Origin: an uncultured bacterium
GTDB lineage: Bacteria; Planctomycetota; UBA1135; UBA2386
Reading direction: 5' to 3'
Assembly: GCA_963974725.1 (NCBI GenBank)
Contig: CAXBFC010000001.1
Location: forward strand, 471-64,470
DNA length: 64,000 nucleotides
The notes beneath the pieces were generated by a model. That model searched no databases. It was not told the origin of the DNA and saw only the letters and a list, made by a program, of their open reading frames with translations. Position 1 is the first letter of the stretch. The number at the start of each line of letters is the position of its first letter. Made by a program: the position numbers and the translations under genes. Positions 81 through 34,721 of this stretch are shown in pieces.

Positions 81-1724
81 ATGTTCCTCTGCACCTTTGT
101 CACTGCTCTTCTCGCCACGAGCCATGGTCCCACCACGGCCAACGTCGACGACCCCCAGTCCCACGGCACCGTCGGGGATTCCCTGCTATCGCTGGATGAA
201 GCCATCCAACTGGCTAACGGCACCCTGTCGCTAGCCAGCCTGTCCGCCGCCGAACAGGCGCGCGTGATTGGCATCGGCGACGTCACGCAAATCATCGTTG
301 ATCGTGCGATCACGCCGGTCATCACCGTGCAAGCACCGTTGACGACCCTCACCGGGCCGCAGAGCTCACCTGGCATGGTCACGGTCATGGGCGTTGCCGC
401 AGGTGGCGTCTTGCCAGTTCTCGACGGCGGCACCCAGGCGACGATTCTGACGATGGGGTCGCGCGAACTGATGGTGCACGGCTTCCGCTTCGAAAATGGC
501 GGAGTCGCGGTCGACGCCGCGATGCCCGCGCCGGCCAACCCAGTCTCCGAAATGGCCATGCTCGCCAACTGCGAGTTTGAAGCCCAGACATCTGCTGCCG
601 TGCAACTGCGCGGCACCGGCACCGACAAGACCCGACTGATGGTGCGTGACTGCTCGATGCAGAACATGCCGCTCGGCTACCGCCTCGATGACCAGACCAA
701 CGGTGGTCAGCTCATGTGCGAGAGCGAGCGCATCACCATGGACGGCGTCACCCTCGGCTGCGATGCCTTCGAAGGTGGCTTCGGCGGCACCACGATGTGG
801 GCGTTCTGGCGCAGCTCGTTCGTCAACGGGGAGACCCTCGCCAAATCCAGCCGCTCGCCAACCGCGACGCAGCTGCTCATGCTGCGCATTGTCTACACCG
901 ATGCGACCTGCTCGGGCGACGTGATCGACATGGAAGGCACCACGGCAGGCACCAGCATGATCCACCACCATCACGGTGACTGGACCGCCGGCGCCGGCAA
1001 GAAGGCCTTGTGGACCCACCCGCGCACCGCGCAATTCGACGTGCACGGCAGTGAGATGGTTTTCAACAGCGACCTGTTGATTGCCGGCGGCACGACCTCG
1101 CCACGCTTCTGGCATCAGAACAACCACTACAAGAACTGCAACATCACGCTCGACATCGACGGTGCCTTGCCCAACTTGCTGTGGAACCGCTACGAGAACT
1201 GCACGATCACCGTGCCGGCGCTCGCCCGTTCGCCGGTCAGCATTCGCAGCTCGCACCTGTCAGGCACGGACGTCGATAGCCAATCGTTCTTGGCTCCCAT
1301 CGACATCAACGGCTGCAACCGCGTCGGCGGCACGCTGACTGGCTTCACCAGTGAAGTGACTCCGTCACCTAGCGAGTTCCTCGGCACCACCGAAGTCACG
1401 CCGCAAGATCCGCAAGTCGGCACCAGCCTGCAACTCAGCGCGGATCTGCCGGCCGGCATCATCATGTTCTGGGACATCGCCACCAGCTACGCGCGGCCTG
1501 TGACGTCGCAAGAGCCGGTGCGCTTCTACGGCGACCCTGCCACGGTGGTGATCCTGCCGGTTGTGGTGATCTTCCAAAGCACGTTGACGGTGCCGATCCC
1601 GAACAACCCCGGACTGATCGGGCTCGAGTTCTACGCGCAAGGCATCTCGATCCCATGGCCAGCCGTCACGCAGGCACCGGCCTACCATCTGCCGCGCGGC
1701 GGGCGGATCAACGTGCGCCTCTAG
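81..1724 (+). CDS. secreted parallel beta-helix-like protein with shared C-terminal module
   Basis: ORF 57..1724 (TTG at 57). ATG at 81 gives the signal-like N-terminus MFLCTFVTALLATSHG. SLDEAIQLANG motif resembles CSLREA-type beta-helix proteins. C-terminus TVPIPNNPGLIGLEFYAQGISI matches the C-termini of four other secreted ORFs in the window. Confidence 0.6.
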   Translation: MFLCTFVTALLATSHGPTTANVDDPQSHGTVGDSLLSLDEAIQLANGTLSLASLSAAEQARVIGIGDVTQIIVDRAITPVITVQAPLTTLTGPQSSPGMVTVMGVAAGGVLPVLDGGTQATILTMGSRELMVHGFRFENGGVAVDAAMPAPANPVSEMAMLANCEFEAQTSAAVQLRGTGTDKTRLMVRDCSMQNMPLGYRLDDQTNGGQLMCESERITMDGVTLGCDAFEGGFGGTTMWAFWRSSFVNGETLAKSSRSPTATQLLMLRIVYTDATCSGDVIDMEGTTAGTSMIHHHHGDWTAGAGKKALWTHPRTAQFDVHGSEMVFNSDLLIAGGTTSPRFWHQNNHYKNCNITLDIDGALPNLLWNRYENCTITVPALARSPVSIRSSHLSGTDVDSQSFLAPIDINGCNRVGGTLTGFTSEVTPSPSEFLGTTEVTPQDPQVGTSLQLSADLPAGIIMFWDIATSYARPVTSQEPVRFYGDPATVVILPVVVIFQSTLTVPIPNNPGLIGLEFYAQGISIPWPAVTQAPAYHLPRGGRINVRL

Positions 1725-3976: not shown

Positions 3977-6748
3977 CTAGTTCGACTGGAACAACTCGCT
4001 GGTCACGATCGAAGTGATCATGGTAGCAAGGCCATCGCCACGCATTCGTGTCTGAGCTGTAATCTCGTCGATCGCGGCACGATCTGCAAACGTCAACGGC
4101 CGGCCGAGTGCGAACGTCGCCAGCTTTTGGACCAAGGCCCGAACGAACTGATCCTGCCGATTCTTGAGCAGGAAGCGCTTCAAGCCATCGACGCCATCGA
4201 GCTTCTGCTTGTTGAACAGCACGCTGACCGAGTCGACCGGCTTGCCGCCAATCTTGGTGCGGAACCTGCCGACCGCATCGAAGTTTTCGAACGCGATCCC
4301 CCACGGATCGATCTTGGCGTGGCAGGACATGCACGCCGGATGATCTCGATGGTTCTCGATGCGCTGCTTCAACGTCATCTTGGCGATCTCCGGATCGGTC
4401 AGATCGATCTCAGGCACAGCCGGCGGCGGCGGTGGCGGCGGATCGTTGAGCAGACGCTCCAGCATCCAGATGCCGCGCTTCAGCGGATGCGAGTCGATGC
4501 CATCGGAGTTCATCGCCAGCAACCCCGCCTGCGTCAACAAGCCGCCACGTCCCTGCTCAGGCGTCAGCTCGACGCGGCGGAACTGGTTGCCCGTGACATC
4601 GGACAAGCCGTAGTGCTTGGCCAGCCGTTCATTGGCCATCGTGAAGTTGGCGTGCAAGAACTCGAGCGCGCTGTGATCTTGCTGCAGAACCTCGTGGAAG
4701 AATGCGATTGGCTCCTCAGCCATCGCCTGCTTCAGGGTCGCATCAAAGCGTGGGTAGGCTTTGCGATCGACGTGCAAGAAGTCGAGCAGTTCGAGCCCGA
4801 GCCACTGTCGAACGAAGTGCTGCGAGAACCTGCGCGCCTTGGGATCGCGCAGCATGCGTTCGAGCTGGTCGCGAAGCACGTCCGCATCCTGCAACTGCCC
4901 TGTGCTCGCCAGCGTCTGCAACTCGCGATCCGGCATGCTACACCAGACGAACATCGACAGGCGCGTCGCCAACTCAAGCCCGGACAGTCCGTCTGCCTTC
5001 GAGGCAACGACGTAGAGGAAGTTGGGCGACGCCAGCACCGTCGCCAACGTCTCGACCATCGCATCCTCGAAGCTGCCGCACTTGGGGCGCAGCTTCTCAA
5101 ACAGCTTCACCTTCTGCGCGACTTCTTGTTGGGTCGCATCACGGCGCCATGCACGCGAAAGAAACTGCGTCAGCACCTCACGTGCGTAGACGTTCTCCTC
5201 GGCGGGCTTCGAGCTGGCACGATCGCCGAAGATCTTCGTGTGCGAAGTCGGCGGCCACTGCTCGTAGACGGGAGCGCTGACCTCGACGTGGTCGATCCAC
5301 ACATCGCCGCCCGAATGCGACGTGTTGAGAATCTTGATGTATTCCGACGGGCTTGGAAGCTGGCCGAGCTCCTGGGTCTTGCGCACCATGTTGCGCGGAT
5401 AGATCTGGCTCAACGGCACTTGCCATTCGTAGAACTGCGCCGCCCCAGGTGCAGCAGCCACGACAAGTTCCTCCTTGCCGATCACGTACGAAGAGCTCGA
5501 GTCGTTGCTCGCCTGCCAGCCGAACATTAGCTGCAAGCTCGGTGCCCCATCATGCTCGCGTGACTCGCGCGAGGCACGCACACGCACGCGCAGCATGCCC
5601 CGCTCCGGCAACTGATTTCCTAGCTCGACGACCAGTGCCTTGCGCTGCGGAACAACCGCAATCTGTTCCAACTGAGCTGGGACTTCGGGCCGTTTTTCCG
5701 CTGGCTTCCAAGCAAACTTCGCGCCGTTGTAGCCCCACGACTGCCGCGCCATACGGCCACTCTTCAGGTCCTTGTAGAAGACGCCGTTCGGCCGCTTCAA
5801 AAAGCGCTCGGCCTGACGCGCCAACTCGACTTCCAACTTCTTCGAGTCGTCCTTGTGCTTCTTGCGCAGGTTGGCGAGTTGCTGGTCCTGCTTCGCCCAC
5901 TCGACTGCCGCCGCGGCTGGCATCGACACACCCCAATGCAGCATTTCTGGCTGCTCACCGGTGATCGTCGCCAGGCGCAACGCCCGACGACTGGCATCCA
6001 GGTAGGCGCGAAACTGCATGCCCGATACGTGCAGCACTTCTGAGCTGTTTTGGAAGCCGTCTTTCGAAGTCGGATCGGGGGGCAGGTCTTCGGCAAAGTC
6101 GAACGGCAGCCCGAGCAGGTCTTGCAGCGCGTAGTTGTATTCGTACCGCGTCATCCGCCGGAACGACGAATGCTTGATGGTGGCGCGACGCGTGGTCGAG
6201 GCGATCTGGATTTCCGCAGCCAACCATTCGATCACCCGGGTGCGATCCCCATCGGCAAGCTCCACTTCGTCTTCCGGCGGCATCTCGCCGTTGGTCAACA
6301 CCGCGAGCACTTCGAGCCACCAATCGACATCGTTGCCCGCGAACAGGTCGGCATTGAGCGTATCGATGCGCAGCTCGCCCTTCTGCTTGTCCGGCCCGTG
6401 GCATTCGAAGCACGCTTTCGCGAGCACCGGTTGGATCAACTTCTGGAAGGTCTTGAGGTCCGGCTCCGGGGCCGTTTCGGCGACCCGCTTCGATTCGTGC
6501 GTGTGGTAGCTCGAGCGACGCGCGCCCTCCACCTTGAGCTCGTCGAATGACTTGGGTTGCGCAGCCGGCTTCGGGTCCTGAAGGGTCTTGGAGTCTTCTG
6601 GCGCCTCGACCACCTGCGCGTAGGCGCCGTTACACATGACACACAGCAGTGCGGCGAAGCACACAATGTATCGGACGTTCTTGTGTCGGACGTTCTTGTG
6701 TCGGACGTTTCGGTGTCGGACGTTCTTGGTGTCGATCATTGGCGTCAT
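3977..6748 (-). CDS. DUF1549/DUF1553 protein with planctomycete cytochrome-c-like domain (PSD1-type)
   Basis: 923-aa ORF. CFECHGPDKQKGELRIDTL (CxxCH) N-terminal domain, second CMSCHAKIDPWG motif, signal peptide after a basic repeat region. Confidence 0.9.
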   Translation of the reverse strand: MTPMIDTKNVRHRNVRHKNVRHKNVRYIVCFAALLCVMCNGAYAQVVEAPEDSKTLQDPKPAAQPKSFDELKVEGARRSSYHTHESKRVAETAPEPDLKTFQKLIQPVLAKACFECHGPDKQKGELRIDTLNADLFAGNDVDWWLEVLAVLTNGEMPPEDEVELADGDRTRVIEWLAAEIQIASTTRRATIKHSSFRRMTRYEYNYALQDLLGLPFDFAEDLPPDPTSKDGFQNSSEVLHVSGMQFRAYLDASRRALRLATITGEQPEMLHWGVSMPAAAAVEWAKQDQQLANLRKKHKDDSKKLEVELARQAERFLKRPNGVFYKDLKSGRMARQSWGYNGAKFAWKPAEKRPEVPAQLEQIAVVPQRKALVVELGNQLPERGMLRVRVRASRESREHDGAPSLQLMFGWQASNDSSSSYVIGKEELVVAAAPGAAQFYEWQVPLSQIYPRNMVRKTQELGQLPSPSEYIKILNTSHSGGDVWIDHVEVSAPVYEQWPPTSHTKIFGDRASSKPAEENVYAREVLTQFLSRAWRRDATQQEVAQKVKLFEKLRPKCGSFEDAMVETLATVLASPNFLYVVASKADGLSGLELATRLSMFVWCSMPDRELQTLASTGQLQDADVLRDQLERMLRDPKARRFSQHFVRQWLGLELLDFLHVDRKAYPRFDATLKQAMAEEPIAFFHEVLQQDHSALEFLHANFTMANERLAKHYGLSDVTGNQFRRVELTPEQGRGGLLTQAGLLAMNSDGIDSHPLKRGIWMLERLLNDPPPPPPPAVPEIDLTDPEIAKMTLKQRIENHRDHPACMSCHAKIDPWGIAFENFDAVGRFRTKIGGKPVDSVSVLFNKQKLDGVDGLKRFLLKNRQDQFVRALVQKLATFALGRPLTFADRAAIDEITAQTRMRGDGLATMITSIVTSELFQSN
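6671..6730. repeat. 15-bp tandem repeat x4 (tcggacgttcttgtg) inside the 5' end of the DUF1549/1553 gene
   Basis: Four consecutive 15-mers read directly. On the minus strand they encode (K/R)NVRH x4 in the n-region of the signal peptide. Confidence 0.9.
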
Positions 6749-9001: not shown

Positions 9002-11652
9002 CGCGCGACGACCTTGAGCTCGCCCACTAGTTCGACCTTCTTGCCCGCGATGCCAAGCTGGTATTTGCCCGCGGCAAGAAACTCGACGTCCGCGAGGAAG
9101 TAGGGCTTGGCACTGGTGCGACGCTCCACAACCAGATCCCACAAGAACTGGTTGAGCCCGCGCCTGCCGTTGATCGAGTGCGTAAACCGCACCACGCCCT
9201 CACCATCGGCAACGGTCAACGTCACCGCGGCAGCTTCGGCCAGGAAGAACGTGATCGGCACGCGCTCCTCGGAGCTGCGACGCGGCCGTGGCGTCAGGTC
9301 GTCGGATCGTGGGCGATAGGCAGTCGGAATCGCGAGCAGCGAGTTGCGCGCTGGACGGTTCTGCAACCACCAGTGCAAGGGCTTGAGGTCCAGGCGATAG
9401 ATGCCACGACCATGGGTTCCTGCAATCAGATCTAGTTCGCGTTCTTGGATCACCAGATCTGCAACCGCCACGCCGGGCATGCCACGTCCCAACAAGGACC
9501 AACTGCTGCCGCGGTCGATGGACACGTACACGCCGCGATACATCGCCGCATAGAGCACATGCTCGAAGCGAGGGTCTTCAACGATGGCATACGCCACTTC
9601 GTTGGGTAGGTTGCCGCGGATCGATGTCCACGTCGCACCGCGGTCCTCGGACACGAACAGGTGCGCGCCCAGGTCGTCGTAGTTGAGGCCCGTGACGGTG
9701 ACGTAGACCCGCGCGTCTTCAAATCGAGAAGCACAGATGCTGCGGATGTAGAACGGCGGCAGCCCCTGCGAACGTTCCGACCAGTCCTCCCCACCGTTGT
9801 CGCTGACCCAAAAGGCGCCGCGATCGGTGCCACAGTAGAGCAACCCAGCCCGCAGTGGCGACTCGGCCAACGCACCGGCGGCCGTGCTCGCGCGGGCCTC
9901 GGCAGCGGACTGCGAAAGGTCTGGGCTGATGACGCGCCACGAATCGCCGCGATCCGGACTGCGCAAGACGAAGTTGCCGCCGTGATAGAGAACGCGATGG
10001 TCGTGCGCCGACACGAGGTACGGCGCAATGAAGTTGTGCTGCAACTTGCCAACATGTTCGCGCGGCAAACGCGGCGCGATCGACTTCGAGCGATTGCTCG
10101 GCACATCCTTGCGGCGCAAGCCACCGTGCTGGCTCGAGAAGTAGACGGTGTTGGCATCGACGGGATCCGGCACCGTGTAGCAACCATCGCCACCGCACCA
10201 TGGATCGAGCCAAACGTATTCCCAGAGGTCCGGATCGGTGGATCCGGGGCGGCGTTCGCGCGCCGGACCGCGCACCGACGCGTTGTCCTGCACCCCGCCA
10301 TAGACGAGATACGGATCGCTGTTGTCGACGGCCACATCGTAGAACTCGCCAACCGCCAGATTGTTGTGATGCAACCACGACCGGCCGCGATCCAGACTGG
10401 TGTAGAGGCCACCATCGTTGCCGAGGATCAGCTGGTTGGGATGCGCTGGATCGATCCACATCTCGCAGTGGTCGAGGTGCAAGGTCTGGGCCGGGCTTGG
10501 CACCCGATGCGTCACCTCTCCACCGATCAATTCGAACGTGCGGCCACCATCGGTGCTGTGGGCAATGCGAACGCCGAGCGCGTAGATCTCATCATCATCC
10601 AACGGATTGAGGTAGCAGTCGGAGAAGTACCAGCCGATTCGCGAGTTGATCTGCAGGTCTTCCTGATGCGTTCGCAACCAGCTCGCGCCACCATCGAGGC
10701 TGCGATACACCTCACCGGGGTTCTGCTCACGATTGAGGTTGTCGACAAACGCGTAAACCTTGTCCGGGTTCGTCGCCGACACGGCCAGCCCGATGCGGCC
10801 CGTCTTCGGCCCATCGGGCAAGCCGCCACCGAGTTTGGTCCAGGTGCGCCCGCCATCGGCGCTGCGATGCACAGCACTCGAAGCACCGCCAACGGTGGGA
10901 TGGTTCTGCCACATGGATGCGTAGACGACTTCAGGCTGCGACGGCGCAATGACGACGTCGACGGCACCGGTGTGCTCATCGACATACAACACGTGCTGCC
11001 ACGTCTTGCCGGCGTCCGTGGTGCGGTAGACTCCTCGGTTCTTGTTGCTCGACCAGAAGTGCCCGAGCACCGCCACGATTGCGGAATTGGGGTCCGTTGG
11101 GTGCACGGCGATCTCGCCGATGTGCCACGAATCGCATAGCCCCACATTGCGCCACGACTCACCACCATCGCGAGACAAGAACACGCCGGTGCCCGGCATC
11201 GTAAAGTTGCGCGGTTTCTTCAAGCTCTCGCCCGAGCCAAGCCAAAGCACTTGCGGGTTGCACGGCGCCAACGCGATATCGCCAATCCCGATCGCCGACT
11301 GCTGCTCAAACATGCACCGCCACGACAACCCACCGTTGGTCGTCTTCCACAGATTGCCCGAGCCGAACGCGGCGTAGATCGTGCCTGGAGACGTCGGATC
11401 GCCTTGCACCGCCTCGACGCGCCCCGAGTTGAGCACGGGCCCCAACGACACCCACGTAAGCGCAAACTCCGAAGCCTGCTTGGCCGCGCGGTATTGCGCA
11501 AACGAGGCGACTAGCGGGCTATCTGGCGATTGGCCCCCTGCTGATTGAGACTCTGCTGATTGAGACTCTGGCGATTGAGACTTTGGCGATTGGGCCTGGG
11601 CCGCTGCTACGCACGACCACAACAAGAGAATGACTAGGTAACGATGCGGCAT
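8998..11652 (-). CDS. sortilin/Vps10-like BNR-repeat beta-propeller protein
   Basis: ORF 8998..11733. The internal ATG at 11652 gives the signal peptide MPHRYLVILLLWSCVAAAQA. Repeated SxDxGxTW motifs. Confidence 0.85.
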   Translation of the reverse strand: MPHRYLVILLLWSCVAAAQAQSPKSQSPESQSAESQSAGGQSPDSPLVASFAQYRAAKQASEFALTWVSLGPVLNSGRVEAVQGDPTSPGTIYAAFGSGNLWKTTNGGLSWRCMFEQQSAIGIGDIALAPCNPQVLWLGSGESLKKPRNFTMPGTGVFLSRDGGESWRNVGLCDSWHIGEIAVHPTDPNSAIVAVLGHFWSSNKNRGVYRTTDAGKTWQHVLYVDEHTGAVDVVIAPSQPEVVYASMWQNHPTVGGASSAVHRSADGGRTWTKLGGGLPDGPKTGRIGLAVSATNPDKVYAFVDNLNREQNPGEVYRSLDGGASWLRTHQEDLQINSRIGWYFSDCYLNPLDDDEIYALGVRIAHSTDGGRTFELIGGEVTHRVPSPAQTLHLDHCEMWIDPAHPNQLILGNDGGLYTSLDRGRSWLHHNNLAVGEFYDVAVDNSDPYLVYGGVQDNASVRGPARERRPGSTDPDLWEYVWLDPWCGGDGCYTVPDPVDANTVYFSSQHGGLRRKDVPSNRSKSIAPRLPREHVGKLQHNFIAPYLVSAHDHRVLYHGGNFVLRSPDRGDSWRVISPDLSQSAAEARASTAAGALAESPLRAGLLYCGTDRGAFWVSDNGGEDWSERSQGLPPFYIRSICASRFEDARVYVTVTGLNYDDLGAHLFVSEDRGATWTSIRGNLPNEVAYAIVEDPRFEHVLYAAMYRGVYVSIDRGSSWSLLGRGMPGVAVADLVIQERELDLIAGTHGRGIYRLDLKPLHWWLQNRPARNSLLAIPTAYRPRSDDLTPRPRRSSEERVPITFFLAEAAAVTLTVADGEGVVRFTHSINGRRGLNQFLWDLVVERRTSAKPYFLADVEFLAAGKYQLGIAGKKVELVGELKVVAR
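11523..11597. repeat. 15-bp tandem repeat x5 (ctggcgattgagact-like) in the 5' coding region of the sortilin-like gene
   Basis: Five consecutive 15-mers. On the minus strand they encode QSPKSQSPESQSAESQSAGGQSPDSP immediately after the predicted signal peptide. Confidence 0.9.
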
Positions 11653-11750: not shown

Positions 11751-12179
11751 ATGCTCAAGAACGCCATCTATCTCGCGACAGGTGCTTTGCTGTTCGCCCA
11801 GTCTGGGTTGGCCCAGGCCCCGTTCAACCAGACTCCGCTCCACCCGGCCAGAGAACCCCGGGCCACAGACCTGCAAGCACCCGTTCGCATTCTGGCCGCA
11901 GGCAAGCCCATCGATGTGACGACTGGCCACGCGGCGCCCTACGTGCGCGACTGCGACGGTGACGGGGTCCGCGACCTGATCGTCGGCGAGTTCGGCGACG
12001 GCAAGTTCCCCGATCACGAGTTGCCTGAGTGCCTCGCCGAAGGCTGGAAGAAGGGCGGCCGGTTCGCCAATGGACGACTGCGCGTCTACAAGAACCACGG
12101 CACCAACAGCCAACCGCGCTTCGAAGACTTCGAGTATCTGGAAGCGGGTGGCGACATCGCCACAGTACCGATCACTTGA
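11751..12179 (+). CDS. FG-GAP/VCBS repeat secreted protein, N-terminal part (ends at in-frame TGA)
   Basis: Signal peptide MLKNAIYLATGALLFAQSGLAQA and CDGDGVRDLIVGEFGDG motif. Same reading frame as 12183..13055, separated only by TGA and one Cys codon. Confidence 0.7.
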   Translation: MLKNAIYLATGALLFAQSGLAQAPFNQTPLHPAREPRATDLQAPVRILAAGKPIDVTTGHAAPYVRDCDGDGVRDLIVGEFGDGKFPDHELPECLAEGWKKGGRFANGRLRVYKNHGTNSQPRFEDFEYLEAGGDIATVPIT

Positions 12180-12182
12180 TGC

Positions 12183-13055
12183 TTGAGCTTCTGTCCACAG
12201 TTCGTGGACTACGACGCCGATGGCTTGACCGACATCCTGACGGGTTCTTATACCGGCCAGTTCTACCTTTTCCGCGGCCAAGCGAACGGCAGCTACGCGC
12301 AACGGGAACTGCTCGTCAACGAAACCGGCGCGACCCTGCTGATGCCGTTCGACACGGTCTACTCCGTCACTGCAGAGTTGGTGGACATGGACGCCGACGG
12401 TGACCTCGACCTGATCGTCGGGGCTCGTTCGGGCACGGTGCAGGTCGTCACCAACATCGGTACCAGAAAGGCGCCGATCTGGTCGAAGGATCGCAGCCCA
12501 CTCAAGACGACTGCCGGAATCGAAATCAAGGGCAGCAACGCCCACCACGCCGACTGGGACGGGGATGGCCTTCGTGATCTGATCGTCGGCAGCGAGCACG
12601 GCGAAGTACGCTGGTATCGCAACACCGGCAAGAACGATGCGCCGCGCTACGCAGCAGCCAGCGTCCTGGTGCGCCAAGCCGGGCACAGTCGTCAGGAAGA
12701 AGGCTCGACGCCAACCGCACACGGCCAACGCGTCAAGGTGCACGTCACCGACTGGAACGGCGACGGCTTGGTCGACCTACTCGTGGGCGACGTCACCTGG
12801 CAGCAATCGACGCCCAATCCGCTCAACAAGGCGGAAGCAGCCAAGAAGCAGAAGCTCGACAGGGAGCTATCGAGTGTTCGCAGCAAACTGGCGAGCACGG
12901 CCAAGGGAGCCGCGCGCGACCAGTTGCAAGAACAGGTCGACTCCATTCGCAAGAAGCTCCGCCCATACAATCGCACCAAGTCCCACACCCACGGTTGGGT
13001 TTGGCTCTACTTGCGAACCGGCAAGGCGAGTGAAGCGAGCGTCGATCGCCGCTAG
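12183..13055 (+). CDS. FG-GAP/VCBS repeat protein, C-terminal continuation of 11751..12179
   Basis: DYDADGLTDIL, DMDADGDLDLIVG, DWDGDGLRDLIVG, DWNGDGLVDLLVG repeats. No signal peptide, only a TTG start directly after the upstream stop, no intergenic space. Confidence 0.7.
   Translation: MSFCPQFVDYDADGLTDILTGSYTGQFYLFRGQANGSYAQRELLVNETGATLLMPFDTVYSVTAELVDMDADGDLDLIVGARSGTVQVVTNIGTRKAPIWSKDRSPLKTTAGIEIKGSNAHHADWDGDGLRDLIVGSEHGEVRWYRNTGKNDAPRYAAASVLVRQAGHSRQEEGSTPTAHGQRVKVHVTDWNGDGLVDLLVGDVTWQQSTPNPLNKAEAAKKQKLDRELSSVRSKLASTAKGAARDQLQEQVDSIRKKLRPYNRTKSHTHGWVWLYLRTGKASEASVDRR
12193..12209 (+). other. 17-nt stem-loop GTCCAC-AGTTC-GTGGAC 13 nt downstream of the in-frame TGA (bSECIS-like candidate)
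   Basis: Perfect 6-bp inverted repeat with a 5-nt loop containing GU. The apical loop starts 19 nt after the UGA. Confidence 0.3.
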
Positions 13056-15053: not shown

Positions 15054-16682
15054 ATGAACTCCCTTGCCTCACGTTTCGCCGTAGGGCTTGTGCTCGCCGC
15101 CATCGCGCAGGCGCAAGACAACAAGCCCAACATCATCCTGTTCCTCGTCGATGACATGGGGTGGCAGGACACGTCGGTGCCGTTCGCGGACCAGCCAACG
15201 CCGTGGAACCAACTCTACCGGACGCCGCACATGGAGGACCTCGCGCGGCGCGGTGCGAAGTTTACGCAAGCGTACGCCGCGCACCCCGTTTGCTCGCCAA
15301 CACGGTCGAGCATGATGACCGGCAAGAACCCAGCGCGCAGCCACGTCGACGACTGGGTTGGCCATGGCTACACCAGCAACAAGTATCTGCGCTCGCCCAA
15401 GTGGGCAGCACTTGGCCTGCAACCAGGGGGCCCGAACGCCTACTTGCCCGAACTGCTCCGGAAGAACGGCTACCGAACGATTCACGTTGGCAAGGCGCAC
15501 TTCGGCGGCAAAGACACTGCCGGCGCGGACCCGACCACGCTCGGCTTTGACATCAACATTGCCGGGTCGCACACCGGTGGCCCATGGGGCGGATGGATCT
15601 CGCCGTGGTTGGGGAAATACAAGGACGTCTACCCCAACCTGCACGACCGCCCGAAGGGGGAATACCTGACGCGCGCCATCACCGTGAAGGCGATCGAGAC
15701 CATCGATGATGCGATTCGGGACGACGTGCCGTTCTTCCTCAACATGGCGCAGTTCGCCGTGCACACCGGCATCGCACCGGCACCGGACTACATCGATGGC
15801 TATCAGGACGGACGGCCCAAAGTAGAGGCCGACTACGCATCCATGCTCGAAGCGATGGATGCGTCGCTCGGCTCCCTGCTAGCCAAGTTGCGCGACCCGA
15901 ACGGGGATGGCGACCCAAGCGACAGCATTGCCCAGAACACGTTGGTCTTGTTCACTTCCGACAACGGTGGCCTCTCCAACCACACCCGCGCTCGCGACGG
16001 CAAGATCCAGGTTCGGCCGGATCAGGGACAACCGGTGCAAGCCGACTTCGAACGGGACTGGCACAACCGGCCGCTGCGCAGCGGTAAGGGCTCGGCGTAC
16101 GAAGGCGGCACGCGGGTGCCGATGCTCGTCGCTTGGGCAGGGCAGCAGCCCGGTGCCAAACCCGTGCACGCATCGCTGCCAATCGCACCTGGCTCGACGG
16201 TCACGGAGCCAGTGCACATGGATGACTTCTTCCCAACGGTGCTCGATCTTGCAGGGGTCGCCAACCCAGTGCCGAAGCCGGATCGCGACGGCCAGAGCTT
16301 GGCGCCACTACTAGCTGGCCGCTCGTTCGAACGCGAGACCCCGCTGTTCTGGCACTACCCCCATCAGTGGTACAAGGACGTCGGCGTGGGCCTTGGCATT
16401 GAGCCATTCAGTGCCATGCGCAAGGGCCGCTACAAGGTCATCTACTTCTATGGCGATGGTGTTGCGGATGGCGCAGGCTACGACCCACGCGTCGAACTCT
16501 ACGATCTGTCGCTCGACTTGAGCGAGGCGCACGACCTTGCCGGGAGCGAAGCAAAGCGCTGCATCGCCCTGCGTGATGAACTCGTAGATTGGCTGCAGCG
16601 CGTTGGTGCCGGCATCCCGATCATCAAGGCCACGGACAAGCCGGCCGCGCTTCCTGCCGCAGGAAGCCCACTGCACCAGTAG
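15054..16682 (+). CDS. sulfatase (formylglycine-dependent arylsulfatase family)
   Basis: 542-aa ORF with signal peptide. NIILFLVDDMGWQD and the CSPTRSSMMTG (C-x-P-x-R) signature. Starts 14 nt after the upstream gene. Confidence 0.9.
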   Translation: MNSLASRFAVGLVLAAIAQAQDNKPNIILFLVDDMGWQDTSVPFADQPTPWNQLYRTPHMEDLARRGAKFTQAYAAHPVCSPTRSSMMTGKNPARSHVDDWVGHGYTSNKYLRSPKWAALGLQPGGPNAYLPELLRKNGYRTIHVGKAHFGGKDTAGADPTTLGFDINIAGSHTGGPWGGWISPWLGKYKDVYPNLHDRPKGEYLTRAITVKAIETIDDAIRDDVPFFLNMAQFAVHTGIAPAPDYIDGYQDGRPKVEADYASMLEAMDASLGSLLAKLRDPNGDGDPSDSIAQNTLVLFTSDNGGLSNHTRARDGKIQVRPDQGQPVQADFERDWHNRPLRSGKGSAYEGGTRVPMLVAWAGQQPGAKPVHASLPIAPGSTVTEPVHMDDFFPTVLDLAGVANPVPKPDRDGQSLAPLLAGRSFERETPLFWHYPHQWYKDVGVGLGIEPFSAMRKGRYKVIYFYGDGVADGAGYDPRVELYDLSLDLSEAHDLAGSEAKRCIALRDELVDWLQRVGAGIPIIKATDKPAALPAAGSPLHQ

Positions 16683-18135: not shown

Positions 18136-19992
18136 TCAGTTCATCACGATCGTGATCGGGTTCGAGAACGTGAAGCCGATCGCGAGGTTGGCCGGGTTGG
18201 TGGTCAAACCCTGCAGAGTAATCTGCAAGCCCGGCGGCAAGAACGCCGGCACGGGCACGGCCAAGGTGGCATCACCGTTTGCGTCCAATACGTAGGCCGG
18301 GTTGAGAAGCCCGTTCGCGAGGATGAGCAGATTGGGTGCAAGACCCAACGTGCCCGCCGGCCCCGGAGCACCAGGATTCAGGCCAATGCCGAACGGCAGC
18401 AAGTAGGCCTCACCCGGGTGGCCATGCACTTCGACAGTCATTGACGAACCGAGCGCAACCGATAGCGGTGGCGCACCAAAGCCTGGCGAGCCACCGGTGC
18501 CATTGATCTCAAACGCCGCGCCACGCGATTCCTTCTGCACCGGCAGCGGCGGGCTATCGAAGAAGAACAGCAGGTCAGCAAGTTCATCGATGCCGATCAC
18601 TTCCATGTCTTCGTCACCGTCAATGTCCGCCAAGATCGCGCACGAGCCCGCGCCCGTTGCCGGCAATATCTGCGGCGTGCCATAGGTGCCGTTGCCCTGG
18701 TTGCGGAACACGTAGAACGAACCGCCGGTGTAGCTCGACGAAATCAGGTCGAGGTCGCCGTCGCCATCCAAGTCGCCAAGGTCAATCGCCAGCGAGAACG
18801 GCCCGCAGGGATAGGTCACGGCCGGCAAGAAACCGCCGGCACCGTTGTTCCTCATCACCGCCACGCTGCTTGCGTTCGACAGGCTCGCAACAACATCGAC
18901 GTCACCATCCAGGTCGACGTCACCGGTCGCCATCATCCACGGGCGGCCGCCAGCGGCAACTGTCGCTGAAACGGTGAAGTTGCCGGCACCATCACCGAGC
19001 AGCATCGCGACGTCCTCGCTGCCGTAGCCGCCGACGAACAGGTCCATGATGCCATCGCCGTTGATGTCCGCTGCGGCGATCGAGGTTTCGTTGGAGACAC
19101 CACCTTGAAAGCTCACCGACGGTTGGAACGTGCCATCGCCGTTGTTGCGAATGAGCGACAGCGTGCCACTGACGCGATTGGCCGTCATGATGTCGGTGTC
19201 GCCATCGCCATCGACGTCGAGCACCGTCAAGCCGCGCGGGCCCGTGCCAACCGGTAGGATCACCACCGGCAGCAAGTCGCCAGTGCCATCGTTGAGGAAC
19301 ACACCAACCGAGTTGCCGGTGATGTTGGCGACCGCGAAGTCCGTCCACCCATCATCGTTGAAGTCCGCACCTTCGTTCGAACTCGGCTTCGTCCCAAACG
19401 GCAGCGAGTGCACCGTGAAGGTCGAGAAGTTGCCGGCGCCATCGTTCATGAAGCGGCGGACATCGTGGGCGTCCTCATTCGGGATCAGCAGATCGCAGTA
19501 GCCATCGTTATCCAGGTCGCCGGCGTAAGCGCCATAGGAGCGAATCAACCCCTCGCCGGGAAAACGAATCGGCACGGTCACTTGATGCACAAGACTCGGC
19601 ACCGCGGGCGGTGACGCAATCCAGAACCCAGTCGCATGATTGGCGGCCAACGCCACCCCACCCGAACTCATCAACGCCGGCGTCAGCGTCGCCGTGATCT
19701 GTTCGCCGGCGGAGAACGGCGCGCTGGGAGTAAAGCGAATCACCGTGTTGCCGCTCTCAAGCGTGCGCGTGCCATTCATGACCCCGCTCCAACGCCCCCA
19801 CACCATGACAGAGTTCGCCGTCACCGTCCCGGGGTCGACCGGCGCACCAAACGTCCAGGTGATATCGCCCACCGCCGACGCATCCGTCGCCTCAGCCGTC
19901 GGAACAACCTGCACAACCTGGAACTGCGCCGAAACAGAAGCACAAGCAATGACGCCAACCACAAACAGCACTCGAGGAAGATGGATTCGCAT
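18136..19992 (-). CDS. secreted Ig-like (SbsA-type) + FG-GAP/VCBS repeat protein with shared C-terminal module
   Basis: ORF 18136..20169. ATG at 19992 gives the signal peptide MRIHLPRVLFVVGVIACASVSAQ. Many DxDGDG repeats (DLDNDGYCDL, DFNDDGWTDF, DVDGDGDTDI, DINGDGIMDL, DVDLDGDVDV, DLDGDGDLDL). C-terminus AVPVPAFLPPGLQITLQGL. Confidence 0.85.
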   Translation of the reverse strand: MRIHLPRVLFVVGVIACASVSAQFQVVQVVPTAEATDASAVGDITWTFGAPVDPGTVTANSVMVWGRWSGVMNGTRTLESGNTVIRFTPSAPFSAGEQITATLTPALMSSGGVALAANHATGFWIASPPAVPSLVHQVTVPIRFPGEGLIRSYGAYAGDLDNDGYCDLLIPNEDAHDVRRFMNDGAGNFSTFTVHSLPFGTKPSSNEGADFNDDGWTDFAVANITGNSVGVFLNDGTGDLLPVVILPVGTGPRGLTVLDVDGDGDTDIMTANRVSGTLSLIRNNGDGTFQPSVSFQGGVSNETSIAAADINGDGIMDLFVGGYGSEDVAMLLGDGAGNFTVSATVAAGGRPWMMATGDVDLDGDVDVVASLSNASSVAVMRNNGAGGFLPAVTYPCGPFSLAIDLGDLDGDGDLDLISSSYTGGSFYVFRNQGNGTYGTPQILPATGAGSCAILADIDGDEDMEVIGIDELADLLFFFDSPPLPVQKESRGAAFEINGTGGSPGFGAPPLSVALGSSMTVEVHGHPGEAYLLPFGIGLNPGAPGPAGTLGLAPNLLILANGLLNPAYVLDANGDATLAVPVPAFLPPGLQITLQGLTTNPANLAIGFTFSNPITIVMN

Positions 19993-20092: not shown

Positions 20093-21100
20093 ATGGCAAG
20101 GAAACCGCGCAACGACTCGCCAGGAACCTGGCACCACGCAATGAACCGCGCGATCGCTCGCCGGCCCATCTTCGAAACGCGAGAGGATGTGCGCTACTTC
20201 CTCGCTGGCGTCGCCCGTTCGGTTCGCAGAGGCCAACTCGAAGTGCACGCATGGTGCGTGATGACGACGCATTTCCACATGCTCGTGCGAAGTCCGATCG
20301 GCGAGTTGTCAGAGGCGATGCACCGCATCCAGAATGCGTTCACGCGCTACTTCAACCGGAAACGGCGTCGTGATGGACCACTGTTTCGCGGTCGCTTCTT
20401 GTCCAACCCTGTGGAATCGATCGCCTACCGGCGGATTCTGGTGAACTACATCGACGCGAATCCGGTTCGTGCCGGCCTGTGCACCGATCCATGCAGGTAT
20501 CCGTGGGGCAGCGCGCGGCAGTATGTCGAAAGCACGGGACCACGTTGGCTGCACCGGCAATGGGTCGAAGAGCTGGTCTCCGAGCGATCGCCTACGGGGC
20601 GCTTCGATCCGAGTTCTTATCCGCGATCCACGGATGAGCGGCAGCGTGATGTGTTCGCGCACCTGGTGCAAGCGCGACTCGAATCGTCCAGCACAACCGA
20701 CGAGCTCGATTCGCTATTGGCCATGGCGCCCCCGGCCATTCGCGCTTGGTTGCGGCGCAAGGCGGTTCTCGCTGATGGCGCGCCACCACCATTCCCATGC
20801 GTCGCGGCCACCGTCATCACCGACTCGATCGCCGAATCCGCCATCCAGCACGGCACCTGGATCGTTCGCCCAAACCGCGCACAAGTCGACGGCTGGTCCA
20901 CCCTGCACGCAGGTCTCCTACGCGGTCTCGCAAACGAGAGCATGGTCGGCGTTGCACATCGCGTCAAAGTGTCGGCAGTGCAAGCCAAGAGGCTTGTCAC
21001 TCGCCACCGAGAGCTCCTGCTCACGTCCGACCTCTACAGCAACCGCGCCGCTGAAATCACCCACACAATCCTGAACGTACTGTGCCAGGCACAGATCTAA
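20093..21100 (+). CDS. REP-associated tyrosine transposase (RAYT, IS200-like Y1 transposase domain) with C-terminal extension
   Basis: 335-aa ORF. HUH motif in WCVMTTHFHMLV and catalytic-Tyr motif ILVNYIDANPVRAGL. Flanked by REP palindromes. Confidence 0.85.
   Translation: MARKPRNDSPGTWHHAMNRAIARRPIFETREDVRYFLAGVARSVRRGQLEVHAWCVMTTHFHMLVRSPIGELSEAMHRIQNAFTRYFNRKRRRDGPLFRGRFLSNPVESIAYRRILVNYIDANPVRAGLCTDPCRYPWGSARQYVESTGPRWLHRQWVEELVSERSPTGRFDPSSYPRSTDERQRDVFAHLVQARLESSSTTDELDSLLAMAPPAIRAWLRRKAVLADGAPPPFPCVAATVITDSIAESAIQHGTWIVRPNRAQVDGWSTLHAGLLRGLANESMVGVAHRVKVSAVQAKRLVTRHRELLLTSDLYSNRAAEITHTILNVLCQAQI
21077..21100 (+). repeat. REP-like element copy b (GTACTGTGCCAGGCACAGATCTAA), overlaps the RAYT stop codon
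   Basis: Contains the palindrome CTGTGCC-A-GGCACAG. Encodes the last residues LCQAQI and the stop of the RAYT. Confidence 0.75.
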
Positions 21101-25905: not shown

Positions 25906-27306
25906 TCAGAGCGAGCGAATGCGCAGGTTCCGCAGTTGCAGCGGCATCGAGTGATCTTGGAACCCAATCGAGCCCGTGCGCGGGCGATCGGCGATGCGCT
26001 TGTGATCGAGCGCCATCGTGTGCACCAGGCGACCATTCAACGTCACCAGAATCGTGCCGTTCTCGCAAAGCACGTGCATGTGGTTCCACTCACCCGCCGG
26101 CTTCGCCGCGTTCTCACTCGGCGGCCCACCCGGAATGATGCCGCCGGCATCGTGGTCGGTCAGACGCACCTTGTCCGCGGCCGTCGCGTAGAGCTGCACT
26201 TCGACGCCCGTGGCGACTGGCTTCGCCTGATCGCCGACGTGGAAGTAGAAACCTGAGTTGCCGTTCTTCTCGAGGCTGTACTCAAACTCCGCCTCGAAAT
26301 CCGCGTAGTCGCCTTCGACCCATAGGTAGTGGCCGTAGCGCTGCCAACCCTTCTGACCATCGCTCGGCGTCAGCTTGGCGACGCCATCGGCGAGCGTCCA
26401 ATTGCCTTTGGTCGCGCAATGCGTCGACAGTTCTTTGCCGGCCAGCGGCTTCGCCCAGGCACCCGGCTCCTCCAGTTTCAGGATCTCGACCGAACGGAAC
26501 TGGATCGCGTGGCTCTCGGATTGCAGCGAGATCGTGCCCTTGCGCAGTTGCTTGCTACGACCATCGGCGAGCAACTTCTTGGCGTCCGCATCGCGCGGAT
26601 CCAATTGCGGCTGCTCATAGGCGAGCACCGTGTGGCCGTCGATCAGGTGACGAATCGTATCGCCGCGCACTTCGATCTCGGCAGTGACCCAACCGTCGCC
26701 CCGGTAGGTCTTGGAGTTGGAGTTCAAGCAATGCGGCGTCCACAGCTTGCCGTTGCGAACGACATTCGTGCCGGGCGTGCACAGGTTCGAAGTCGGCCGC
26801 TCGCCCTTCTCGCGACCGCCCAGGATCTGCACTTCGATCGACACTGGGAAGTTCTGTTTCTTGGTCATCGATTCCGCGGACTGGCCATGAATCATCACGC
26901 CACTGTTGCGGAACGCCCAGCCAGGGCCACCCTTCACCTGAGGGCCGACAAAGCGGTATTCGGTGCGGAATCGGTAGCTGGCAAACTCGTCCTTGTAGAA
27001 CAGGTGACCAAAGCGGCCGTTGAACGCATCGTAGTTTTCGTAGGAGACGGTCAGCAGTCCGTCGACGACGCGGAACGTATCACCAAAGTTGTCACCGAGA
27101 TCGTGGCCGACGATCTTCGGCGTCCAACCGGTCAGGTCCTTGCCGTTGAACAACGGCCGCCACGTTGCCGGCGAGGCATCGGGAGCAGCGGGCGCAGCGG
27201 CGTCTTGCGCAGCGGTAACGCCGGCAAAACTGGTGACCGCCAGCATCGCAGCGGCAACCAGCTGCGGAAAGAACACAACACGAGGACGAGGGTGCGAACC
27301 GTTCAT
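25906..27306 (-). CDS. tandem DUF1080 (3-keto-disaccharide hydrolase-like) domain protein
   Basis: 466-aa ORF with signal peptide. Two copies of the WxxLFNGKDLxGW ... FQDH/LQSE pattern (WRPLFNGKDLTGWTPK; GSIGFQDHSMPLQLRNLRI). Confidence 0.85.
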   Translation of the reverse strand: MNGSHPRPRVVFFPQLVAAAMLAVTSFAGVTAAQDAAAPAAPDASPATWRPLFNGKDLTGWTPKIVGHDLGDNFGDTFRVVDGLLTVSYENYDAFNGRFGHLFYKDEFASYRFRTEYRFVGPQVKGGPGWAFRNSGVMIHGQSAESMTKKQNFPVSIEVQILGGREKGERPTSNLCTPGTNVVRNGKLWTPHCLNSNSKTYRGDGWVTAEIEVRGDTIRHLIDGHTVLAYEQPQLDPRDADAKKLLADGRSKQLRKGTISLQSESHAIQFRSVEILKLEEPGAWAKPLAGKELSTHCATKGNWTLADGVAKLTPSDGQKGWQRYGHYLWVEGDYADFEAEFEYSLEKNGNSGFYFHVGDQAKPVATGVEVQLYATAADKVRLTDHDAGGIIPGGPPSENAAKPAGEWNHMHVLCENGTILVTLNGRLVHTMALDHKRIADRPRTGSIGFQDHSMPLQLRNLRIRSL

Positions 27307-27377: not shown

Positions 27378-28586
27378 CTAGTAGACGACCCCGCCAACCG
27401 GTGCGCCAATGCCGATCGCGCCCATCTCCAGCATCACCGGCTGGAACCAAATCGTTCGACCGAACAACTGCACTGCTACCGGTCCCGTGCTGGCGGTCAT
27501 AAACAAGCCGTTGACGTCGGCGGTGCCCACACTGATCACCGCTGCCGTCGACGGACTAAGCCGCAGCGGCTCGAGAGCGAACGGCACCGCCGCCGACGGC
27601 ATCAACTCGCCAGTCGCAACGACCACCAAACTGCCAGGCAAGCAACGCGTCATGATGCGATAGCCGGAACCAACCCGAGGCGCGCCAAACGACGTGTATT
27701 CGACCAAGCCATAGCTCGTCAGAATGCGCGCGGCGGCTTCGAGACCGGCAACGGGAGGCCCCGGAACCTGCCATCCTGCCTGGCCAGGCAGCACGAACCC
27801 CATGCCGCCAATCATCGTGCTGCGACAATGGCGCACGGGAGTGGTGCTCTGATTGAGCACCGCCGGCACTGGGAACGAAGACACACTGTCGCCGCCGAGA
27901 ACCGACGTGTCCGTGAGCGACACGTTGCCGCCCATGACACGCATTGCCGGCCAGCCAGTGCCAAGCAGGTAGGCGTCCGCGCCCACCACCGAGCAATCGT
28001 TGAGCTCCAATCGACCGCCGGTAACTCGAATCGCGTAGGGCGCCTGAGTGCCCATGATCATACTCGCCGCGAAGGACGAACGCGACGCGACGACGTTGCC
28101 GCCGCTGACCAAGCCGTCGTGCGAACTGAAGACCGCGCAGCCTTCGAGCACGACATCGGCGGCCCCAATCGACAAGCACTCGTCGACCTTGGCCGGATGA
28201 CCGCCATAGAACTGGCAATCGGTAAAGGTCAGGTGGCCACCAACAACTCCGACGAGGTGCGGCTGCACCGCGGACAGCGAACGAAACTGCAGTCCAACCA
28301 AGTGGCCGGGTTGACCGGGCGGTGGGTTGAACTGGGTGTACGCCCAGCAATGCGAGCAGGCGCCATTGTTGGCGATCGTCGCGCCGTTCGGCGCCAAGAT
28401 CGTCACGCCGACATTCATCGTGAACGCTGCGTAGGTGCCTGGCTGCACGAGCACCAGATCGCCGGGCTGGGCAACCGCGAGTGCTGCGTCGATGTCCGGA
28501 TAGGAGCTCGGCACGTCGAGCGTTGCCTGCGCAAGCGCACATGCCTGCAGCATGCAAAGAACGAATGGGATCAGGTGGTTCGACAT
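27378..28586 (-). CDS. secreted right-handed parallel beta-helix protein with shared C-terminal module
   Basis: ORF 27378..28793. ATG at 28586 gives MSNHLIPFVLCMLQACALAQA. YPDIDAALAVAQPGDLVLVQPGTY is typical of the N-terminus of pectate-lyase-fold proteins. Confidence 0.75.
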   Translation of the reverse strand: MSNHLIPFVLCMLQACALAQATLDVPSSYPDIDAALAVAQPGDLVLVQPGTYAAFTMNVGVTILAPNGATIANNGACSHCWAYTQFNPPPGQPGHLVGLQFRSLSAVQPHLVGVVGGHLTFTDCQFYGGHPAKVDECLSIGAADVVLEGCAVFSSHDGLVSGGNVVASRSSFAASMIMGTQAPYAIRVTGGRLELNDCSVVGADAYLLGTGWPAMRVMGGNVSLTDTSVLGGDSVSSFPVPAVLNQSTTPVRHCRSTMIGGMGFVLPGQAGWQVPGPPVAGLEAAARILTSYGLVEYTSFGAPRVGSGYRIMTRCLPGSLVVVATGELMPSAAVPFALEPLRLSPSTAAVISVGTADVNGLFMTASTGPVAVQLFGRTIWFQPVMLEMGAIGIGAPVGGVVY

Positions 28587-33549: not shown

Positions 33550-33623
33550 GGTGGGAGTAGCTCAGTGGTAGAGCGGAAGTCTGTGGAACTTCAGGCCCAG
33601 GTTCGATTCCTCGCCCCACCCCA
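33550..33623 (+). tRNA. tRNA-His (anticodon GTG)
   Basis: Hand fold: G-1 plus GTGGGAG acceptor, D arm GCTC-AGTGGTA-GAGC, anticodon arm GAAGT-CTGTGGA-ACTTC, T arm CCAGG-TTCGATT-CCTCG, encoded CCA. The acceptor stem needs one bulged A and the T stem has a C-C mismatch. Confidence 0.75.
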
Positions 33624-33701
33624 ATTCGCCACATCCCGATTCGCCACACCCATGCGAACCATCAACCCGAGAGGAGGTGATCCACCACTACATGCACATT
33701 A

Positions 33702-33775
33702 ACTGGCGTCGTTCAACAGCAGGACACCCGGCTCTGAACCGGACAATGCAGGTGCGAATCCTGCCGCCAGTACCA
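33702..33775 (+). tRNA. tRNA-Gln (anticodon CTG), non-canonical T loop TGCGAAT
   Basis: Hand fold: acceptor ACTGGCG/CGCCAGT, D arm GTTC-AACAGCA-GGAC, anticodon arm CCCGG-CTCTGAA-CCGGA, variable CAAT, T arm GCAGG-TGCGAAT-CCTGC, discriminator A, CCA. Confidence 0.8.
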
Positions 33776-33776
33776 C

Positions 33777-33851
33777 GTCCCCGTAGCTCAGTAGCAGAGC
33801 ACCTGGCTGTTAACCAGGGTGTCGTAGGTGCGAGTCCTACCGGGGACGCCA
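33777..33851 (+). tRNA. tRNA-Asn (anticodon GTT), non-canonical T loop TGCGAGT
   Basis: Hand fold: acceptor GTCCCCG/CGGGGAC, D arm GCTC-AGTAGCA-GAGC, anticodon arm CCTGG-CTGTTAA-CCAGG, T arm GTAGG-TGCGAGT-CCTAC, discriminator G, CCA. Starts 1 nt after the CCA of tRNA-Gln. Confidence 0.85.
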
Positions 33852-33887
33852 TATCTCGACGCGCAAGCCTCGTCGGGACTGCCATTC

Positions 33888-33964
33888 ATCGATGTAGCTC
33901 AGCAGACGAGAGCGCTTCCGTGCGAAGGAAGAGGTCGCAGGTGCGAATCCTGCCATCGATACCA
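33888..33964 (+). tRNA. tRNA-Arg (anticodon GCG), non-canonical T loop TGCGAAT
   Basis: Hand fold: acceptor ATCGATG/CATCGAT, D arm GCTC-AGCAGACGA-GAGC, anticodon arm CTTCC-GTGCGAA-GGAAG, T arm GCAGG-TGCGAAT-CCTGC, discriminator A, CCA. Confidence 0.8.
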
Positions 33965-34121: not shown

Positions 34122-34721
34122 ATGACCTCCTCAATACTGTCGCAGCCGACCCTGGTCCTCAACCGATCATGGATCGCGATCGACACCACTTCCGTTCTCG
34201 ATGCCCTGCGGCTGCTCTTCAAGGGCACCGCGGTTGCGGTTCGCCCCGACAACTACGAGATGCACGGCTTCGAGTCGTGGTCCGACCTCGCAGTCGAGCC
34301 CGATGAGCCGCACATCCGCACGCCGCGGCTGCGCATTCGAGTACCGGAAGTGATCGCATTGACCGGCTACGACAAGGTTCCAAAGCGCTCGGTGTCCTTT
34401 ACGCGACGTAACCTGTTCGCCCGCGATGAACGCACGTGCCAGTATTGCGGCTGCCGGCCCGGAACCTCCGAGTTGACGATCGACCACGTGCTACCCCGTT
34501 CTCGCAACGGCAAGAGCACGTGGCACAACTGCGTGCTCGCGTGCGTGCCGTGCAACCGCCGCAAGGCCGACCGCACTCCGGCCGAAGCTTGCATGCAGTT
34601 GCGCTGCGAACCGAAGGCACCCAAGTGGTTGCCGACGCTCGATGTGCCGATTGCTCGGATTCGCCAGTCGTGGCAGAAGTTCGTCAGCGACAAGTACTGG
34701 GACTCGCGGCTGCAGCCGTGA
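34122..34721 (+). CDS. HNH endonuclease family protein
   Basis: 199-aa ORF. CQYCGCRPGTSELTIDHVLPRSRNGKSTWHNCVLACVPCNRRK (Cys4 zinc + HNH motif). Confidence 0.85.
   Translation: MTSSILSQPTLVLNRSWIAIDTTSVLDALRLLFKGTAVAVRPDNYEMHGFESWSDLAVEPDEPHIRTPRLRIRVPEVIALTGYDKVPKRSVSFTRRNLFARDERTCQYCGCRPGTSELTIDHVLPRSRNGKSTWHNCVLACVPCNRRKADRTPAEACMQLRCEPKAPKWLPTLDVPIARIRQSWQKFVSDKYWDSRLQP

Follow-up and report, generated by a model that had tools for sequence, protein, structure and literature searches.

A C-terminal domain common to diverse secreted proteins of uncultured Planctomycetota, a candidate sorting or anchoring tag

Five proteins encoded in a 64,000-nucleotide stretch of DNA from an uncultured marine planctomycete (contig CAXBFC010000001.1 of assembly GCA_963974725.1, positions 471 to 64,470 of the forward strand; we call this whole stretch the window) begin with a signal peptide and end in the same kind of domain, which we call the module. 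The five C-termini are homologous and the module is a real common domain. As judged by profile searches, its family is absent from Pfam and NCBIfam, and it is an undescribed domain with the architecture of a sorting tag. Our preferred reading, at roughly even chances, takes the module for a sorting or anchoring C-terminal domain (CTD) specific to a lineage, a clade of uncultured Planctomycetota, with a logic like that of the CTDs of type IX secretion systems (T9SS). A tag of this kind had been put forward from the letters of the window (the original prediction). Its terminal position, the signal peptides, the variety of the proteins that carry it and the novelty of the family have all held; its function, that is the recognition, export or anchoring, and cleavage of the module proteins, we infer from the architecture.

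Homology of the five C-termini

The pairwise evidence among the five proteins (p1 to p5 in order along the window; Table 1) is thin. BLASTP of the C-termini in a five-sequence database gave weak matches (p2 with p5 at 4e-5, p1 with p5 at 1e-3, p4 with p2 at 7e-3). When hidden Markov models (HMMs) were built with one protein left out, that protein was always the top non-training match in the six-frame translation of the window, and only p4 (26.2 bits) and p5 (37.9 bits) scored clearly above 500 shuffles; p3 was borderline at 15.9 bits, and p1 and p2 did not rise above the shuffles in this five-sequence test. Homology is nevertheless settled because profiles built from external sequences only recover all five. 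In the six-frame window, they find exactly these C-termini, one profile at 3e-27, 3e-26, 2e-25, 4e-12 and 7e-12 (the value of 3e-26 is that of p3, and this profile includes P0017, a protein near-identical to p3 across the stretches compared) and the other at 1e-43 to 3e-6. The next best pieces of the window stand at 0.51 and 0.15 with the two profiles, and the six-frame HMM search gave no sixth copy. Shuffled modules score at most 8 bits, against a median of 33.6 bits for the real ones. A set of 135 full modules, the window five included, forms one BLAST single-linkage component at 1e-6, and profiles of the module detect each other across heads (we use head for the part of a protein upstream of the module).

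One danger recognised from the outset was that the similarity might be an artefact of Ala-, Gly-, Leu- and Pro-rich composition in a high-GC genome (the GC content of the window is 62.7%). The weak pairwise matches and the failure of p1 and p2 to exceed shuffles would suit such an artefact, but the exhaustive search, the external-only profiles and the two confident AlphaFold2 models, which share their strand order (both described below), refute it, as do the low scores of the shuffled modules. We give this explanation practically no credence.

The module spans about 110-116 residues according to the HMM envelopes and the AlphaFold models. The original prediction had its C-terminal place right and its N-terminal side 10-30 residues too short; the starts it gave (1416, 18453, 27638, 40522 and 44525) drop the first one or two strands. 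The motif that it had read by eye coincides with the conserved columns of the family (G17, P81, L86, G88 and Q94 of the module). Along the module, these comprise a Gly at the opening of the first long strand, a central PG..G.L.LDP, then P.P....L.G.....Q, and a late G/N. Among the five, p3 is the most divergent in the late motif, and the p1 subtype has an extra '...HLPRGGRxxxxx' tail.

Family size and terminal position

Word-indexed searches with module alignments returned 12 and 13 matches, nearly all of them environmental fragments closely similar to p1, p2 or p5. Such searches are too insensitive for so divergent a module, and an exhaustive HMM search was needed. With profile A2, built from the window five and a few environmental orthologues, a search of 1.84 billion representative proteins yielded 288 clusters at E <= 1e-3, of which 39 reached E <= 1e-10. 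Three repeat proteins (P0020, P0024 and P0046) owe their high rank to many weak stretches, with no individually significant domain, and were set aside as spurious.

Position was assessed with a diverse profile, A3, by which 282 of 287 fetched proteins carry the module. Its end lies within five residues of the C-terminus in 280 of the 282; with the first profile, it lies within 15 residues in 153 of 155. The result does not depend on gene calling, which was dispensed with in a six-frame search of 610 kb of related genomes where 77 of 78 matches end at most seven residues from a stop codon. No internal or N-terminal copy was found among the 282 proteins, and tandem modules occur in one of them (P0133, an environmental protein of 267 residues that consists of a signal peptide and two tandem modules and nothing else). 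A strong signal-peptide h-region is present in 164 of 191 full-length-looking carriers, and most of the others have a weaker signal peptide or are truncated. These counts agree with the proposal that the module is confined to the extreme C-terminus of signal-peptide proteins.

The five copies in the 64-kb window compare with about 5-6 per 100 kb in related loci, where some 710 kb hold about 39 non-target copies. The gene content of the window is typical of Planctomycetota (PSCyt/PSD, DUF1552, sulfatase, 3-keto-disaccharide hydrolase, FG-GAP and sortilin-type BNR proteins). In profile searches, its sulfatase, PSCyt/PSD, DUF1552 and 3-keto-disaccharide hydrolase proteins are without the module; since these other Sec substrates lack it, the module marks a subset of the exported proteins.

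Heads, hosts and conservation

Clustered by BLAST, the heads form at least 15 groups with no relation to one another, so that the diversity noted in the window extends to the family. Among them are the p1 family, probable beta-helix proteins, FG-GAP proteins, M14 proteins of two architectures, an S8 subtilase, and Kelch and LVIVD propellers; several head clusters are without a Pfam match. Subtypes of the module (p1 type, M14 type, beta-helix type and FG-GAP type) track the head families, which indicates old fusions inherited together with their heads, not a recent shuffling. The same pattern could be expected of a structural accessory domain (a folding aid, stabilising cap or oligomerisation domain) spread by gene-family expansion and having no targeting role, and the conserved residues do look structural. 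However, it is unlikely that one folding aid would serve 15 or more unrelated folds; such a role would also leave unexplained why the module stands strictly at the end and is restricted to signal-peptide proteins; and one homologous family spans the heads. We consider this explanation improbable.

The hosts are uncultured Planctomycetota, represented by metagenome-assembled genomes (MAGs). Module-bearing genes of the p1 family were located at 41 loci in a search with a five-sequence alignment of that family; most of the loci belong to Planctomycetota MAGs, and the samples were of marine, freshwater, groundwater and wastewater origin. At the loci of the closest relatives (L005-L009), the p1 orthologue is adjoined by a divergently transcribed gene of about 565-590 codons whose product also ends in the module (in L005, 7277..9031 on the minus strand beside 9111..10829 on the plus strand); the equivalent place in the window lies beyond its left edge.

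A protein identical to p5 is found on Tara Oceans scaffolds, and a search with its M14 head gave at least 120 relatives of about 820 residues; among the matches listed, all are from Planctomycetota and share the same architecture. The module is kept in 109 of 109 full-length p5 orthologues, in which G756, G759, P789 and Q802 are invariant. It evolves faster than the head, with a column conservation of 0.53 against 0.77 for the M14 domain. At the syntenic position in a related organism (L001, 8999-9211, and likewise L002-L004), the M14 gene has shrunk to a 70-residue open reading frame (P0167) between isochorismatase and PMT_2-like genes. We regard it as a decayed copy because only the last two thirds of the module remain.

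Carrier genes and signal peptides

All five coding sequences are present where they had been placed, and each product has a Sec-type signal peptide at its N-terminus with the starts originally chosen (Table 1). The assignment of the heads fared less evenly. Pfam matches support the Ig-type (Big_5, 9e-10) and FG-GAP (FG-GAP_3, 1.9e-56) parts of p2 and the M14 carboxypeptidase of p5 (Peptidase_M14, 1.3e-61), and the beta-helices proposed for p1, p3 and p4 are weakly backed. The head of p3 has a weak match to NosD (E=0.1) and that of p4 a weak match to Beta_helix (E=0.16), and the p4 head groups with p3-like proteins in one BLAST cluster. The p1 head is without a Pfam or NCBIfam match; it belongs to a conserved family of about 550 residues with 51 representative clusters.

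Table 1. Carrier genes in the window and the extents of their C-terminal modules
Feature	Position	Strand	Description
p1	81..1724	+	Signal-peptide protein of 547 aa if started at ATG 81; TTG at 57 is an alternative start
p1 C-terminal module	1377..1721	+	HMM envelope; 7e-12 with external-only profile
p2	18136..19992	-	Signal peptide, Big_5, FG-GAP repeats, module
p2 C-terminal module	18139..18483	-	HMM envelope; external-only profiles 4e-12 and 3e-6
p3	27378..28586	-	Signal peptide, probable right-handed beta-helix head, module
p3 C-terminal module	27381..27725	-	External-only profiles 3e-26 (profile with P0017) and 1e-6
p4	40223..41569	-	Signal peptide, probable beta-helix head, module
p4 C-terminal module	40226..40561	-	External-only profiles 2e-25 and 1e-15
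p5	44223..46694	-	Signal peptide, propeptide-like region, M14 carboxypeptidase, beta-rich middle region, module
p5 C-terminal module	44226..44570	-	Most typical member

The signal peptides are MFLCTFVTALLATSHG in p1, MRIHLPRVLFVVGVIACASVSAQ in p2, MSNHLIPFVLCMLQACALAQ in p3, ...SVLGVASLALAQ in p4 and MYLSIRVVLLACAMASGVGLSAQ in p5, and in four of the five they end in a small-x-small motif followed by Gln. Reading cleavage sites from the sequence pattern and not from a trained predictor, we find small-x-small and then Gln in 19 of the window's signal-peptide proteins (about 22 in all), whether they carry the module or not (37031..40138 on the plus strand, '...SSLAQ|ELP'; 25906..27306 on the minus strand, '...GVTAAQ|DAA'; 15054..16682 on the plus strand, '...AIAQAQ|DNK'; 3977..6748 on the minus strand, '...GAYAQ|VVE'; p2-p5 likewise). 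Among module proteins of the related genomes, [AGS]Q stands directly behind the h-region in 149 of 177, against about 18% expected from composition. The signal peptides of the window and of the module proteins look like those of the Q-rule of Bacteroidetes, in which an N-terminal Gln is converted to pyroglutamate, and which has been published as exclusive to that group (PMC5837995, PMC10653852). Q-rule-like signal peptides here would contradict that exclusivity and would make convergent evolution of envelope-protein protection testable.

Predicted fold

The module is confidently predicted to be an independently folded immunoglobulin (Ig)-like beta-sandwich. AlphaFold2 models the p5 module, from a 27-sequence alignment, as all-beta with nine strands (pLDDT 88.8, pTM 0.80), and the p1 module, the weakest member by sequence, is also all-beta (pLDDT 80.5, pTM 0.70). 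The two models agree in strand order and in two short 3-10 turns. Foldseek against the PDB retrieves generic Ig-like, FN3 and macroglobulin-type sandwiches (best E values 2.4e-3 and 1.8e-3, TM 0.4-0.65), among them the N-terminal domain of beta-GRP/GNBP3 and a laminarinase accessory domain. No T9SS CTD structure is found in the top 50 Foldseek matches, and a profile search of PDB sequences with the module found nothing.

No Pfam or NCBIfam model falls on the last 115 or so residues of p1-p5, and hmmscan gave no match at E <= 1 to either library, sorting-domain models included, for 63 diverse modules. The original prediction, which had recognised no named sorting domain here, is borne out in this respect. 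It had also reasoned that a generic Ig-like domain free of positional bias would speak against a tag. The fold has proved generic and the positional bias extreme, and because of that bias a generic fold does not refute the tag.

The fold does raise a different explanation, that of a shared ligand-binding domain resembling a carbohydrate-binding module (CBM) or lectin, or otherwise adhesive, that would attach to, for example, a marine polysaccharide, a particle or the glycan coat of the cell itself and would have no role in translocation. An Ig- or FN3-like sandwich suits such a domain, the Foldseek matches include carbohydrate-recognition sandwiches, the heads comprise hydrolases and adhesin-like propellers, an aromatic residue just before the invariant Gln is moderately conserved, and the neighbourhoods contain no candidate machinery. 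On the other hand, internal, N-terminal or tandem positions are common for CBMs and adhesive Ig domains, the conserved columns of the module form turns (Gly, Pro, Asp-Pro and Asn) and no aromatic platform, and the structural matches are all weak. In our judgement, ligand binding as the sole role is rather unlikely.

Comparison with known systems

The nearest analogue in architecture is the type A CTD of the T9SS of Bacteroidota, likewise a single Ig-like sandwich at the extreme C-terminus of Sec-exported proteins, carried by many unrelated heads (proteases, adhesins and propellers) in many copies per genome, conserved less than the catalytic head, and borne by cargo whose signal peptides follow the Q-rule. 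The module differs in having about 115 residues and nine predicted strands, where T9SS CTDs have 70-90 residues and seven strands, in its motif (G...PG..G.L.LDP ... P.P....L.G.....Q ... N) and in its host phylum, Planctomycetota, which is without a known T9SS. Although it shares the terminal position on proteins with Sec signal peptides, it has no detectable sequence kinship by hmmscan to the T9SS CTD models (PF18962 and TIGR04183 for type A, Por_Secre_tail; TIGR04131; and the sorting-domain models for T9SS in NCBIfam). On sequence grounds, the module is not a demonstrable member of the T9SS CTD family.

It could still be a very divergent true T9SS CTD in a clade that carries a T9SS, ancestral or acquired. 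Solved T9SS CTDs are compact Ig-like 3+4 beta-sandwiches with seven strands, C-terminal on Sec-exported cargo (PMC11285876). The module has their position, kind of cargo and broad fold class, and the clade shows the Q-rule feature that had been thought exclusive to Bacteroidetes (PMC5837995, PMC10653852). Against this, neither the five full proteins nor the 63 modules match a T9SS model of Pfam or NCBIfam at E <= 1, the module is longer and has two strands more, the top 50 Foldseek matches lack T9SS CTDs, no T9SS gene is seen in the annotated neighbourhoods, and a genome survey found the T9SS only in Bacteroidetes (PMC4793230). We therefore regard this as very improbable.

Other terminal signals fit less well. 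The tags of the PEP-CTERM/exosortase system (PMC1569441) and the LPXTG/sortase system are, like the module, C-terminal and common to unrelated secreted proteins of one genome. They are short, about 25-35 residues, and tripartite, with a motif, a transmembrane helix and a basic cluster, whereas the module is a soluble sandwich of 115 residues that lacks these parts. In the last 40 residues, we found neither a transmembrane-like segment nor a basic cluster: over 19-residue stretches, the highest Kyte-Doolittle mean is 1.06 at the median and 1.9 or more in 6 of 281 proteins, and the last eight residues hold on average 0.95 Lys/Arg. Some PEP-CTERM systems do occur in Planctomycetota. With no transmembrane segment, basic tail or NCBIfam match, a tripartite signal is ruled out. 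A beta-barrel or autotransporter signal, which has a C-terminal aromatic residue and a barrel of at least 250 residues, is ruled out by the size of the sandwich and by the terminal residue, which is F, Y or W in 3% and R, Q or N in 64%. A type I secretion signal is an unstructured C-terminus on a protein without a Sec peptide, and is ruled out by the signal peptides of the carriers and by the folded state of the module in the models.

Domains of the Big_x, FN3 and macroglobulin kinds belong to the same broad fold class and give the best, although weak, PDB matches; they occur in arrays and at any position, whereas the module is single and terminal, and the free position and frequent tandem or internal copies of a generic Ig-like domain or CBM are not seen. 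The C-terminal CBMs of secreted hydrolases are also small beta-sandwiches appended at the C-terminus. Unlike them, the module occurs equally often on non-enzymatic proteins (propellers and beta-helix proteins) and on enzymes, lacks a conserved aromatic platform, is strictly terminal and is without a Pfam match at E <= 1.

Proposed function

We suggest the following route for the module proteins. The precursor would cross the inner membrane by the Sec pathway through its N-terminal signal peptide, and signal peptidase I would cleave behind the small-x-small motif, usually exposing Gln. The C-terminal Ig-like beta-sandwich of about 115 residues would then fold in the periplasm and serve as a common handle by which one shared component of the envelope recognises unrelated cargo (peptidases, propellers and beta-helix proteins). 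The cargo would be passed across the outer membrane, fixed on the cell surface, or both, and the module may be removed afterwards.

The tag is suggested by a combination of properties: the module is single-copy, terminal, bound to signal peptides, carried by many heads, abundant, independently folded, and long retained with modest conservation. The single terminal copy in particular favours a tag, because Ig domains that bind or act as spacers are usually scattered or in arrays. Several points weigh on the other side. Some ligand-binding domains also favour C-termini. The fold is generic, and the conserved residues, mostly turn-forming Gly, Pro and Asn, tell little of a recognition surface. 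The copy number per genome, for which the densities given above suggest a hundred or more in order of magnitude, is extrapolated from loci picked for carrying a module gene. No recurrent machinery candidate appears within 10 kb on either side of module genes in the related genomes, and a genome survey reports the T9SS from no group other than Bacteroidetes (PMC4793230).

That the clade, with members in marine, freshwater and wastewater settings, possesses an undescribed and independently arisen outer-membrane export or surface-attachment system that reads the CTD on perhaps a hundred or more cargo proteins per genome, together with the Q-rule, we put forward more tentatively; it is possible, and we hold it with some doubt. 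Such a system would be the functional counterpart of the T9SS of Bacteroidota. We found no paper in the literature on such a C-terminal sorting domain of Planctomycetota. Little is understood of how members of this phylum bring their large secretomes through the outer membrane or onto it, and surveys of secretion systems suggest that environmental clades hide unknown systems (PMC4793230). If the module is a tag, its HMM could list the cargo in any genome, metaproteomes could be checked for cleavage of the tag, and the annotation of hundreds of 'hypothetical' proteins per MAG would improve. Phylogenetic profiling of the tag could point to the machinery; the PEP-CTERM/exosortase and rhombosortase systems were reportedly found in this way.

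Gene neighbourhoods

T9SS components (SprA/Sov, PorV, PorU and GldK-N make up the machinery) are absent among the annotated neighbours within the same 10 kb on either side. Next to p5, a gene for a 559-residue multi-pass PMT_2-like glycosyltransferase (42534..44213, minus strand) starts 9 nucleotides past the p5 stop codon. Close relatives keep the two genes side by side (L049, L050 and L052; in L051 the PMT_2 gene is partly deleted) and more distant ones do not, and we have for this reason rejected the glycosyltransferase as machinery for the module. Two MAGs have paired T2SSE (PilT-like) ATPase genes upstream of the M14 orthologue (L047, 186..2578; L048, 6707..9127), separated from it by one small open reading frame in L048 and by several genes in L047, and a Secretin_N protein is encoded just downstream of the M14-PMT_2 pair in L052 (14377..15984). 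Neither the T2SSE pair nor the Secretin_N protein recurs enough to be linked with the module.

Other features of the window

On the plus strand, an open reading frame for a 142-residue signal-peptide protein (11751..12179) is followed in the same frame, with the TGA at 12177-12179 between them, by one for a 290-residue FG-GAP protein (12183..13055), which is without the module. The pair may represent a single gene interrupted by an in-frame stop (pseudogene, sequencing error or recoding) or else two separate genes. A gene for an IS200-like Y1 transposase family protein (20093..21100, plus strand; PF01797, 1.6e-7) lies immediately upstream of p2 and is divergent from it. Four tRNA genes (His-GTG, Gln-CTG, Asn-GTT and Arg-GCG) occupy 33550..33964 on the plus strand and are followed by an HNH endonuclease gene on the same strand (34122..34721).

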